A stretch of 3,255 bases of DNA, from IMG/VR virus record IMGVR_UViG_2563366800_000004; one strand, written 5' to 3'. This stretch comes from a virus (taxonomy: Duplodnaviria > Heunggongvirae > Uroviricota > Caudoviricetes). The position numbers and the translations under genes are program-made. Each line of letters opens with the position of its first letter. Position 1 is the first letter of the stretch. The notes below the pieces were generated by a model. That model did not search any database, was not told the DNA's origin, and was given only the letters and a program-made list of their open reading frames with translations. This document shows, piece by piece, positions 217 through 3,255 of the stretch.

Positions 217-713
217 TGCCTCCATCATTACGAAAAGCCGTTGCTGCTGCTATTGGTGGCGGAGCAATTGCTATAGCATCAGTGTTAATCACTGGCCCAA
301 GTGGTAACGATGGTCTGGAAGGTGTCAGCTACATACCATACAAAGATATCGTTGGCGTATGGACTGTATGTCACGGGCATACAGGAAAAGACATCATTCC
401 CGGTAAAACGTATACCGAAGCAGAATGCAAAGCCCTCCTGAATAAAGACCTTGCCACGGTAGCCAGACAAATTAACCCGTACATCAAAGTCGATATACCG
501 GAAACAACGCGCGGCGCTCTTTACTCGTTCGTCTATAACGTGGGCGCAGGCAATTTCAGAACATCTACTCTTCTTCGCAAAATAAACCAGGGCGATATCA
601 AGGGCGCATGTGACCAGCTACGTCGCTGGGCATACGCTGGCGGTAAGCAATGGAAAGGCCTGATGACTCGTCGTGAGATTGAGCGTGAGGTCTGTTTGTG
701 GGGGCAACAATGA
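216..713 (+). CDS. R: SAR (signal-anchor-release) endolysin, T4-lysozyme-like muramidase, 165 aa
   Basis: ORF 216-713. The N-terminus [27 protein letters not shown] is a Gly/Ala-rich, weakly hydrophobic segment after a short basic stretch, typical of a SAR domain. Counting residues gives Glu35, Asp44 and Thr50 ([18 protein letters not shown]), the spacing of the T4-lysozyme/R21 catalytic triad. A purine-rich RBS GAGAGGTG (203-210) sits 5 nt upstream of the ATG. The start overlaps the holin stop (TAATG). Confidence 0.9.
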
Positions 714-751
714 GCAGGGTACCGGCGATCCGGCGCGTGAGTTCACCATGA
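710..751 (+). pseudogene. Rz (i-spanin) start stump: 13 codons then stop
   Basis: ATG at 710-712 overlaps the endolysin stop TGA (711-713) as ATGA, the usual R/Rz arrangement. The first codons (ATGAGCAGGG, Met-Ser-Arg) resemble the lambda Rz start as I recall it, but the frame stops at 749-751 and the downstream sequence is capsid-gene 3' end. No Rz1 lipoprotein ORF is present. Confidence 0.45.
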
Positions 752-816
752 TTCAGTCAGCACCGCTGATGCTGCTGGCTGATCCTGATGAGTTCGTGTC
801 CGTTCAACTGGCGTAA
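721..816 (+). pseudogene. 3' terminal fragment (about 31 codons) of a lambda-E-like major capsid protein gene
   Basis: In the frame with codons at 724, 727 and onward, the sequence reads GDPAREFTMIQSAPLMLLADPDEFVSVQLA and then TAA (814-816). This matches my recollection of the C-terminus of the lambda major capsid protein gpE. There is no start codon and no upstream capsid sequence; homology appears to begin near 719-724. Confidence 0.6.
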
Positions 817-818
817 TC

Positions 819-836
819 ATGGCCCTTCGGGGCCAT
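819..836. other. Intergenic stem-loop: 7-bp perfect stem ATGGCCC/GGGCCAT closing a TTCG tetraloop
   Basis: Read directly: ATGGCCC (819-825), TTCG (826-829), GGGCCAT (830-836), which are exact reverse complements with a C-G closing pair on a UUCG loop. It lies between the capsid-gene stop (816) and the FI RBS (848-854) and is followed by a moderately T-rich stretch TGTTTCTCTGTGG. Confidence 0.5.
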
Positions 837-1761: not shown

Positions 1762-2671
1762 GTTATACGAGGTGTATAACAACGGATATCCAACAGCGTA
1801 TGGAAATATCATTCACCTGAAAGGGATGACAGCCGTTGGCGAAGGTGAGTTACTCATCGGCTGGAGTGGTACAAGCGGTGCTCATGCTCCGGCATTTATT
1901 CGTTCACGACGGGATACGACCGACGCAAACTGGTCGCCGCGGGCGCAGCTTTACACCTCGGCTCATCCTCCTGCAGAGTTTTATCCAGTCGGCGCACCAA
2001 TCCCGTGGCCATCAGATACCGTTCCGTCTGGTTATGCCCTGATGCAGGGGCAGACTTTTGACAAATCTGCCTACCCGAAACTTGCAGCCGCTTATCCGTC
2101 AGGCGTGATCCCTGATATGCGTGGCTGGACGATTAAGGGCAAGCCCGCCAGTGGTCGTGCCGTATTGTCTCAGGAACAGGACGGCATAAAATCGCATACC
2201 CACAGCGCCAGCGCATCCAGTACTGATTTGGGGACGAAAACCACATCGTCGTTTGATTACGGCACTAAATCCACGAATAACACTGGTGCGCATACCCATA
2301 GTTTAAGTGGCAGCACGAATGCAGCTGGTAATCACAGCCATAGAGATGGCCGTCGATTTAACCCCAGTGTTTTTAAAGATACTTATCAATATGGTTATAC
2401 AAGCTCAGGTCAAAATACCTGGGGTGTACAAGGCTCAGTAGGTATGTCTACGGGGGCGTTAGCTAATACCAGTACAGATGGTAATCATAGCCACTCACTG
2501 TCCGGCACCGCAGCATCTGCAGGTGCACACGCACATACTGTCGGTATTGGTGCTCATACGCACTCCGTTGCGATTGGTTCACATGGACACACCATCACCG
2601 TTAACGCTGCTGGTAACGCGGAAAACACCGTCAAAAACATCGCATTTAACTATATTGTGAGGCTTGCATAA
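1727..2671 (+). pseudogene. stf: C-terminal ~314 codons of a side tail fibre (Stf) gene, including the receptor-binding tip with HxH motifs; no start codon of its own
   Basis: The frame with codons at 1730, 1733 and onward reads ...[23 protein letters not shown]...[56 protein letters not shown]...[31 protein letters not shown] and stops at TAA 2669-2671. The PIPWP block and the [11 protein letters not shown] terminus are as I recall for lambda/Rac-type Stf C-termini. The frame stays open upstream only as far as a TTG at 1649 inside the Z stump, with no convincing RBS. The first in-frame ATG (1826-1828) has GGG immediately adjacent, which is poor spacing. Confidence 0.8.
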
Positions 2672-3255
2672 TGGCATTCAGAATGAGTGAACAACCACGG
2701 ACCATAACAATTTATAATCTGCTGGCCGGAACTAATGAATTTATTGGTGAAGGTGATGCATATATTCCGCCTCATACAGGTCTGCCAGCAAACAGTACCG
2801 ATATTGCACCGCCAGATATTCCGGCTGGCTTTGTGGCTGTTTTCAACAGTGATGAGGCATCGTGGCATCTCGTTGAAGATCATCGGGGAAAAACCGTCTA
2901 TGACGTGGCTTCCGGCGACGCGTTATTTATTTCTGAACTTGGCTCGTTACCGGAAAATGTCACCTGGTTATCGCCGGAAGGGGAATATCAGAAGTGGAAC
3001 GGCACAGCCTGGGTGAAGGATACGGAAGCAGAAAAACTGTTCCGGATCCGGGAGGCGGAAGAAACAAAAAACAGCCTGATGCAGGTAGCCAGTGAGCATA
3101 TAGCGCCACTTCAGGATGCTATAGATCTGGAGATCGCAACGGAGGAAGAAACCTCATTGCTGGAAGCCTGGAAAAAATATCGGGTGTTGCTGAACCGTGT
3201 TAATACAACAACTGCACCGGATATTGAATGGCCAACAGTACCCATTATCGAATAG
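2671..3255 (+). CDS. tfa: Tail fibre assembly protein (Tfa), 194 aa
   Basis: ATG 2671-2673 overlaps the stf stop (TAATG). The protein [54 protein letters not shown]...[30 protein letters not shown] matches my recollection of lambda Tfa (orf-194) with scattered substitutions. RBS-like GAGG (2659-2662) lies about 8 nt upstream. Stop TAG at 3253-3255 is the last codon of the window. Confidence 0.9.

Follow-up and report, generated by a model that had tools for sequence, protein, structure and literature searches.

A probable deletion scar at a recurrent TA[A/G]CCGCG breakpoint in a lambda-family prophage remnant of Escherichia coli

Introduction

The cryptic prophages Qin, DLP12 and Rac of Escherichia coli K-12 belong to the lambda family, and their internal deletions leave the lysis cassette together with the tail-fibre tip, tfa and sometimes pin. 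In this study, we analysed a stretch of 3,255 nucleotides from the IMG/VR virus record IMGVR_UViG_2563366800_000004 (hereafter the window), which carries a comparable prophage remnant, and in particular its junction 1 (positions 706-820), at which the start of the i-spanin gene Rz is joined to the terminal part of E, the gene of the major capsid protein, at a copy of the motif TA[A/G]CCGCG. The remnant differs from the K-12 cryptic prophages in its location at the lambda attachment site (att-lambda) and in its island of E'-FI-FII-Z', which stands between two junctions of the hotspot type. A more specific likeness is found in Qin, in which the junction nohA|stfQ' shows the same motif and follows the same rule, TA joined to TA, with the Nu1 parent GAATA-TA-TCGAAC giving GAATA-TA-ACCGCG. 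In the Qin prophage of K-12 BW25113 (locus L160, 2440-2560), nohA, which is a homologue of Nu1, is chimeric: its Nu1 part ends in GAGTGAATA-TA and is followed by out-of-frame stfQ' sequence that begins at the motif, and pinQ lies just downstream of tfaQ.

Several described processes share some of the properties of these junctions. Short-homology illegitimate recombination in E. coli yields RecA-independent deletions with endpoints that share a few bases, and the formation of lambda-bio transducing phages shows short-homology hotspots. Here, however, the shared stretch is usually 2 bp and almost always TA, and at three loci an 8-mer fixes one of the endpoints. The invertases of the Din family use a good site together with poor secondary sites that share its central dinucleotide (the quasi-sites of Cin, such as cixQ), produce clean 2-bp overlaps and are encoded beside tail-fibre genes, whereas the present motif is unlike cix, gix, hix and pix and its products are deletions, apart from one possible inversion (loci L066 and L077). 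The elements that target TA (IS630/Tc1-mariner type) and the adjacent deletions that are mediated by insertion sequences (IS) offer a parallel both for the near-strict TA partner and for the combination of one fixed and one variable endpoint, as in intramolecular transposition, but no element, inverted repeat or transposase was present at the junctions that were examined, and the fixed flank is coding sequence of Rz, Z or the side tail fibre gene (stf). Deletions that are promoted by the lambda integrase Int, from att to a secondary att, also form a family with one fixed endpoint; the fixed endpoint in the present case is not att, and inspection of the sequences revealed no similarity between the motif and the core TTTATAC overlap. 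The hotspot resembles invertase quasi-site use, TA-target transposition and Int-promoted deletion, but judged by sequence it belongs to none of them. Neither the motif in this context nor a TA rule for prophage deletions was found to be described in the literature that was searched, in which the older subscription papers were thinly covered, and an earlier description is possible.

Results

Both parents of junction 1 were found on a single 36.5-kb contig of an apparently intact relative, IMGVR_UViG_2778261388_000006, as two loci (L093 and L363) whose order and orientation are kept in the window. The first of them, which stops approximately 440 nt into Rz, matches positions 1-729 at 99.6%, and its Rz reads intact across the junction as GGGTAACCGCG (GGG-TA-ACCGCG). 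The second is 100% identical to positions 720-1724 and carries E with the sequence ...GGGTGACTACCGGCG (GAC-TA-CCGGCG); in this natural allele, which reads ...GGGTGAC-TA-CCGGCG, Thr310 is encoded by ACT and not by ACC. The fusion of Rz GGG-TA-ACCGCG with E GAC-TA-CCGGCG gives GGG-TA-CCGGCG, i.e., a 2-bp overlap at a TA dinucleotide that is common to both parents (positions 720-721), with no filler and no base lost. The TA of Rz lies in codon 4, and that of E spans codons 310/311. When lambda was used as the reference instead, the parents shared one base (A721) plus an imperfect patch.

The flanks could be assigned on both sides of the join. Up to position 721, the window has the essD-rrrD-Rz sequence of a sister remnant (L003) without a change, and as far as position 729 the two differ at 722 and 724 only, and the BLAST matches to intact Rz that cross the junction extend to position 729 with 97.8% identity. 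On the other side, positions 721-1726 align with lambda 7065-8070 at 99.5% and are collinear with the downstream head-tail genes. The E gene of lambda occupies 6135-7160, with lambda 7065 corresponding to position 721 of the window and the end of E at 7160 to position 816. What remains of Rz is a stump on the plus strand (710-721), ATG AGC AGG GTA, which comprises the only Rz-derived bases and is identical to the intact Rz of L003 through position 721. The remaining part of E, also on the plus strand (722-816), consists of codons 311-341, counted from position 721, and the stop codon, lacks a start of its own, is 99.5% identical to lambda 7065-7160 and is listed as a pseudogene with a "missing N-terminus" by the Prokaryotic Genome Annotation Pipeline (PGAP).

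These alignments bear directly on the first-pass annotation of the window, which had been made from the sequence alone. It had proposed a fusion between the Rz start and the final ~31 codons of the capsid gene, with a breakpoint at about 717-723, and both proposals were borne out, the left flank by L003 and L093 and the right flank by lambda E. The alignment against Rz and E that it had suggested placed the join to the base, at the TA of 720/721, and revealed this dinucleotide as the microhomology. The homology of 721-816 to the 3' end of a capsid gene was likewise confirmed, as the translated peptide that is kept in the window, TGDPAREFTMIQSAPLMLLADPDEFVSVQLA, is identical to the C-terminus of lambda E. 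The statement that Rz runs for 13 codons before it meets capsid sequence in a different frame was right about the frame and imprecise about the length. From the ATG at 710, Rz accounts for no more than 12 nt (4 codons), and the 9 codons that follow are out-of-frame E sequence, which makes 710-751 (plus strand) a chimeric 13-codon reading frame and not a gene. The alternative that this frame is a complete small gene was not borne out, as every non-junction locus with the ATG of 710 continues as natural Rz for at least 50 nt; 94 loci with an Rz start of the window type run on as AACCG...

The exact 37-nt junction was found in seven loci from six assemblies (L001 and L006, both from E. coli PCP06171, as well as L004, L005, L007, L008 and L009). 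Among 5,426 complete E. coli genomes, one has the exact Rz'|'E junction, and no matches to the junction 37-mer were obtained in the scanned metagenome contigs. The whole window is 100% identical in four of these loci, which come from four public assemblies (L004, L007, L008 and L009), and differs by one base from the closed chromosome of PCP06171 (L001), the only complete genome with this architecture; the window therefore probably stems from one of the draft assemblies. An assembly artefact is excluded because the exact junction recurs across other assemblies, including a closed chromosome. Junction 1 is real, rare and lineage-specific, and its scar has been passed on vertically in one E. coli lineage.

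The length of the deleted segment was approximately 9.1 kb relative to the closest intact relative (443 + 8,467 sequenced bases + a gap of about 183 bases that was estimated from phage 434), 8.6 kb on the scale of phage 434 and 9.6 kb on the scale of lambda, and therefore exceeded the 7-8 kb that had first been supposed. According to the gene order of phage 434, the rest of Rz, Rz1, the bor/iss region, cos, Nu1, A, W, B, C/Nu3, D and codons 1-310 of E were lost, and the predicted disappearance of the spanins, bor, cos, the terminase, the head genes and most of the capsid gene was thus upheld. Because the join is a clean TA-to-TA one and both parents lie on one contig, a single event would be the most economical history; in this sense the earlier suggestion of one deletion remains the favoured one. 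We consider it quite probable that positions 706-820 are the scar of one natural deletion in a lambda-family prophage, at a hotspot motif.

The motif at the Rz breakpoint, TA[A/G]CCGCG, is present in Rz, in Z and in the side tail fibre gene. The tail-fibre sequence that starts with TAACCGCGCTGACAG (position 1719) sits behind many different left partners across genomes, and at the same point the intact Stf genes of PhiR26_1 and mEp460_ev081 read ...GGTCGGG-TA-ACCGCG, so that the stf site has the entire 11-mer GGGTAACCGCG in common with the Rz breakpoint of junction 1. The copy in Z reads CCAT-TA-ACCGCG. The window itself contains a second copy of the motif, TAACCGCG (1719-1726), which is junction 2 (Z'|stf'). 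At this junction, Z (CCAT-TAACCG(C/A)G) is joined to approximately codon 709 of stf, with an overlap of 8 nt when Z of lambda is taken as the parent and of 6 nt when the L363-type Z (TAACCGAG) is used. The rest of Z, U, V, G, T, H, M, L, K, I, J, lom and two thirds of stf were lost.

The recurrence of this breakpoint was assessed in an unbiased scan whose anchor lay 144 nt beyond the motif of stf, on its downstream side, and in which, as in all of the hotspot counts, distinct junction sequences were counted. While 87 loci were intact through the stf site, 14 different left partners, among them Z, the start of V, E, J, Nu1 and A, broke at the stf TA or at most 1 nt away from it. At the other positions of the 144-nt control stretch, there were at most one or two events each; small clusters at +44/45 and at +63 to +71 resemble mosaic joints with other fibre genes. 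The TA of Rz with the left side kept was used in L082, in L133, in the window type and in L066/L077, and the TA of Z in L438, L470 and L479. Events in the reverse orientation were observed at the motif in L215 and L340. The partner carried TA exactly at the join in 21 of the 24 independent junctions with identifiable parents (chance 1/16 each, i.e., about 1.5 expected); in the three exceptions it was CA, TT or 1 nt off.

Four of the distinct events come from closed genomes: nohA|stfQ' in K-12 Qin (L160), A'|stf' in TUM3755 (L161), J'|stf' in 2020CK-00188 (L003) and Z'|stf' in PCP06171. Moreover, at the same att-lambda locus the remnants retain mutually exclusive pieces, namely the 5' end of Z in the window type, a fragment of J in L003 and the 3' end of Z with U in L012, all of which end at the stf TA; within a single prophage lineage, the events at the stf site must therefore number at least three. 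TA[A/G]CCGCG is a recurrent breakpoint in lambdoid prophages, which is joined almost always TA to TA.

Other kinds of joints were also encountered. In L066 (~11171-11240) and L077, some 20 nt of unplaced sequence separate Rz GGGTAAC from the 5' end of an integrase gene in the coding direction (reverse orientation), which could be an inversion-type product of the hotspot. Ordinary microhomology joints without the motif occur in sister remnants, namely Nu1'|Z' in L012 (~260-270; GATAC-G), a cos-proximal|C joint in L026 (~11728; 2 nt) and J|J in L005 (~7489; 1 nt). EC361 (L159 4216-6423) carries a widespread fusion in which the initial ~59 codons of rrrD continue in frame into a tail-fibre gene and which is annotated as a 735-aa "tail fiber protein"; this rrrD|stf joint, where the BLAST segments have 14 nt in common, is unlike the TA events.

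The remaining genes and gene fragments of the window all lie on the plus strand. The lysis cassette is of the DLP12/21-type and begins with an intact essD (1-216), which encodes a class II (phage 21-type) holin according to the list of open reading frames (ORFs), the PGAP (WP_000839582.1) and Pfam (Phage_holin_2_1). It is followed by an intact rrrD (216-713), which encodes a signal-anchor-release (SAR) endolysin and whose TGA stop codon (711-713) overlaps the ATG of Rz. Downstream of the E fragment, the E-FI intergenic hairpin ATGGCCCTTCGGGGCCAT (819-857) is kept from lambda, and FI (858-1256) and FII (1268-1621) are both intact; the listed ORF 819-1256 is FI plus an upstream in-frame ATG and not a new gene. 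The Z stump (1633-1718) holds the first ~29 codons, is a pseudogene according to the PGAP, and the homology to lambda stops at 1726. The C-terminal ~316 codons of stf (1719-2671; PhiR26_1/mEp460 type) follow, the N-terminal ~709 codons being gone, and the window ends with an intact tail fibre assembly gene, tfa (2671-3255).

In PCP06171, the remnant occupies att-lambda, with ybhC on one side and ybhB/bioA on the other. It follows prophage order, with lambda-type int and xis at its left and stf and tfa at its right, and a diguanylate-cyclase cargo gene lies further to the right. The whole element measures ~6.4 kb, and the genes that are left are int, xis, two small ORFs, S, R, FI, FII, the tail-fibre tip and tfa. 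A complete IS3 (L001 18656-19913) stands between int-xis and the lysis cassette in place of the whole early/regulatory region. Because this element ends 87 bp upstream of essD (spacer 19914-20000), neither Q nor the late promoter of the lysis cassette is left in the remnant of the source genome. The spanins are indeed lost, as had been proposed, but the accompanying remark that lysis should stall at the outer membrane is moot, since nothing is left to express the cassette. No IS end abuts junction 1 within 706-820, and the IS3 upstream of essD marks a different junction. In the window-identical locus L004, a lipocalin/YbgA/AraC cargo block is found beyond IS3 instead of int-xis, and the left boundary therefore varies between strains. 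On the right, a MASE4-GGDEF diguanylate cyclase gene (L001 23329-24660) lies between tfa and attR and is common to all att-lambda remnants of this lineage (L003, L004, L010 and L012). This gene is likely a moron and may account for the retention of the remnant.

Discussion

The recurrence of one 8-mer in three genes, together with a near-constant TA at the partner sites, leads us to infer an activity that is directed by sequence and breaks and rejoins DNA with an overlap of 2 nt, TA. At the copies of the motif in Rz, Z and stf, the DNA has repeatedly been broken at the TA and joined to another TA of the same prophage, and most of the motif events deleted morphogenesis genes. Two options may be envisaged: either a conservative serine-type recombinase or a TA-target/transposase-like enzyme that acts on the motif as a good site and on weak pseudo-sites, or a site-specific staggered cut after which the TA overhang would guide end joining. 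We propose tentatively, and at somewhat less than even confidence, that a new breakage and rejoining activity of this sort exists in E. coli or in its lambdoid prophages, that it works at TA[A/G]CCGCG with a 2-nt TA crossover, that it is a major route of the loss of morphogenesis genes, and that it made both junctions of the window as well as nohA|stfQ' of Qin. The partner sites need TA and little else. Another variant, in which an element was inserted at the TA and then lost together with a flank, was rejected, as no locus shows an insertion at the motif. Among the known sequences to which the motif was compared informally, by eye, none fits: this concerns IS ends, the lambda Int core, the EcoKI, EcoBI and EcoP15I sites, Chi and the preferences of RuvC and RusA.

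Several observations speak against this proposal or limit its reach. The motif is only 8 bp long with no obvious palindrome. Relative to random TA sites of phage 434, the partner sites showed a small excess of similarity to the motif (p ~0.01) and of palindromy (p ~0.03); with signals this weak, a classical two-site recombinase can be no more than a candidate. Lambda itself has CA and not TA at the E site, and the TA call at junction 1 depends on L363 representing the true parent. The evidence for the Rz site is thinner than that for the stf site, with four distinct left-retained events in a 16-nt detection window and one in reverse. Additionally, most of the hotspot loci come from draft assemblies or IMG/VR contigs, even though four distinct events are in closed genomes.

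The simplest competing explanation is ordinary random illegitimate deletion, i.e., microhomology-mediated and RecA-independent, with an arbitrary breakpoint and with coincidence or sampling bias behind the recurrence of the motif. There are indeed remnants in the same loci that have joints with longer microhomology, such as the ~6 nt GATAC-G of Nu1'|Z' in L012, next to the 2-nt joint of L026 and the 14-nt overlap of rrrD|stf in EC361. Furthermore, when lambda serves as the reference, Rz and E can be aligned over an imperfect patch, either without gaps (7/9) or with a gap of 4 nt (CnGGGTnACC....GCGAT). This homology was dropped as an account of junction 1, since the 100%-identical parent L363 gives a plain TA overlap and nothing more. 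Random endpoints would also be expected to scatter, whereas 14 partners end on a single dinucleotide or no more than 1 nt away, compared with one or two per position elsewhere, the same 8-mer is in use at three separate genes, and TA stands at the join far more often than the 1.5 cases in 24 that chance would give. Random deletion therefore appears to be an unlikely source of the pattern.

A second competing explanation is deletion by a serine invertase of the Pin/Cin/Gin family that is encoded next to tfa and uses quasi-sites picked by the identity of the central dinucleotide, as Cin reportedly does. Such a recombinase would make clean 2-bp overlaps like those seen here, and the cores are identical (TA/TA) in 21 of the 24 junctions. 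Immediately downstream of stf-tfa, mEp460_ev081, K-12 Qin (pinQ) and EC361 (pinR) carry a gene for a serine recombinase, and PinQ is active in K-12 (PMC12529663). However, the motif is unlike either pix (CCTTCTCCCAAACCAA; e14 sites, PMC12529663) or cixL of P1 (..CTAAACC TT GGTTTAAG..), the stf region (L016) contains no site like AAACC-NN-GGTTT, and no inverted copy of the motif was found near the recombinase (L016, L015 and L001). For these reasons a crossover site of the Pin/Cin type was rejected. Moreover, the motif lies ~500 bp inside the position that is equivalent to cix of P1, the att-lambda remnant of the window lineage has no pin gene, and the mapped products are all deletions, with the one possible inversion of L066/L077, whereas invertases normally disfavour deletions. 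This explanation is as improbable, in our view, as that of random deletion.

Slightly less weight can be given to a double-strand break by a sequence-specific nuclease at the motif, for instance a restriction enzyme that recognises GGTNACC (BstEII/EcoO65I-type), followed by resection and microhomology joining; a microhomology end-joining pathway is reported to operate in E. coli. The heptamer GGTAACC is contained in the 11-mer that the Rz and stf sites share, GGTGACC stands immediately to the left of the junction 1 breakpoint in E of both lambda and 434, and the partner in L133 has GGTTACC 3 nt away. The idea fails, however, for the Z copy, ATTAACC, and for the variant (TAGCCGCG/GGGTAGCC), neither of which is a GGTNACC site although both were used as endpoints. 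None of the other 12 GGTNACC sites of phage 434 adjoins a junction that was found, a 5-nt GTNAC overhang predicts variable endpoints and not a fixed TA, and restriction attack would cut the whole chromosome.

The least credible explanation, which we consider to be very nearly negligible, is that an engineered KpnI construct or an assembly or scaffolding artefact produced the join: although a GGTACC hexamer coincides exactly with the breakpoint (at 718-723, the site itself having been noticed early on but placed one base too far to the left, at 717-722), it consists of GGTA from Rz and CC from E and is absent from both parents (Rz GGGTAACC/GGTAAC; E GACTACC or GACCACC), its single copy is at the level of chance (0.60 expected per window as the mean of shuffles), the join carries neither vector nor scar sequence and comes from environmental and clinical isolates, and the junction is seen in a closed chromosome and five further assemblies. 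The hexamer is thus a product of the fusion and not a cloning scar.

Conclusions

Taken as a lone scar, junction 1 is ordinary and shows how one prophage was disabled; its interest rests on the hotspot. A deletion scar in a cryptic lambdoid prophage is already a familiar kind of finding, and the recurrent motif with its TA rule is the new part. For annotation, it accounts for recurrent chimeric ORFs such as nohA of K-12 with its out-of-frame 3' end of stf. The proposed activity would offer a testable mechanism for a long-standing pattern, in which the remnants in E. coli so often keep the lysis cassette, the tail-fibre tip and tfa and lose the heads and tails. If it is true, lambdoid prophages would not turn into cryptic remnants like Qin and DLP12 by a purely stochastic process, and the grounding of prophages would be partly directed and not just random decay.

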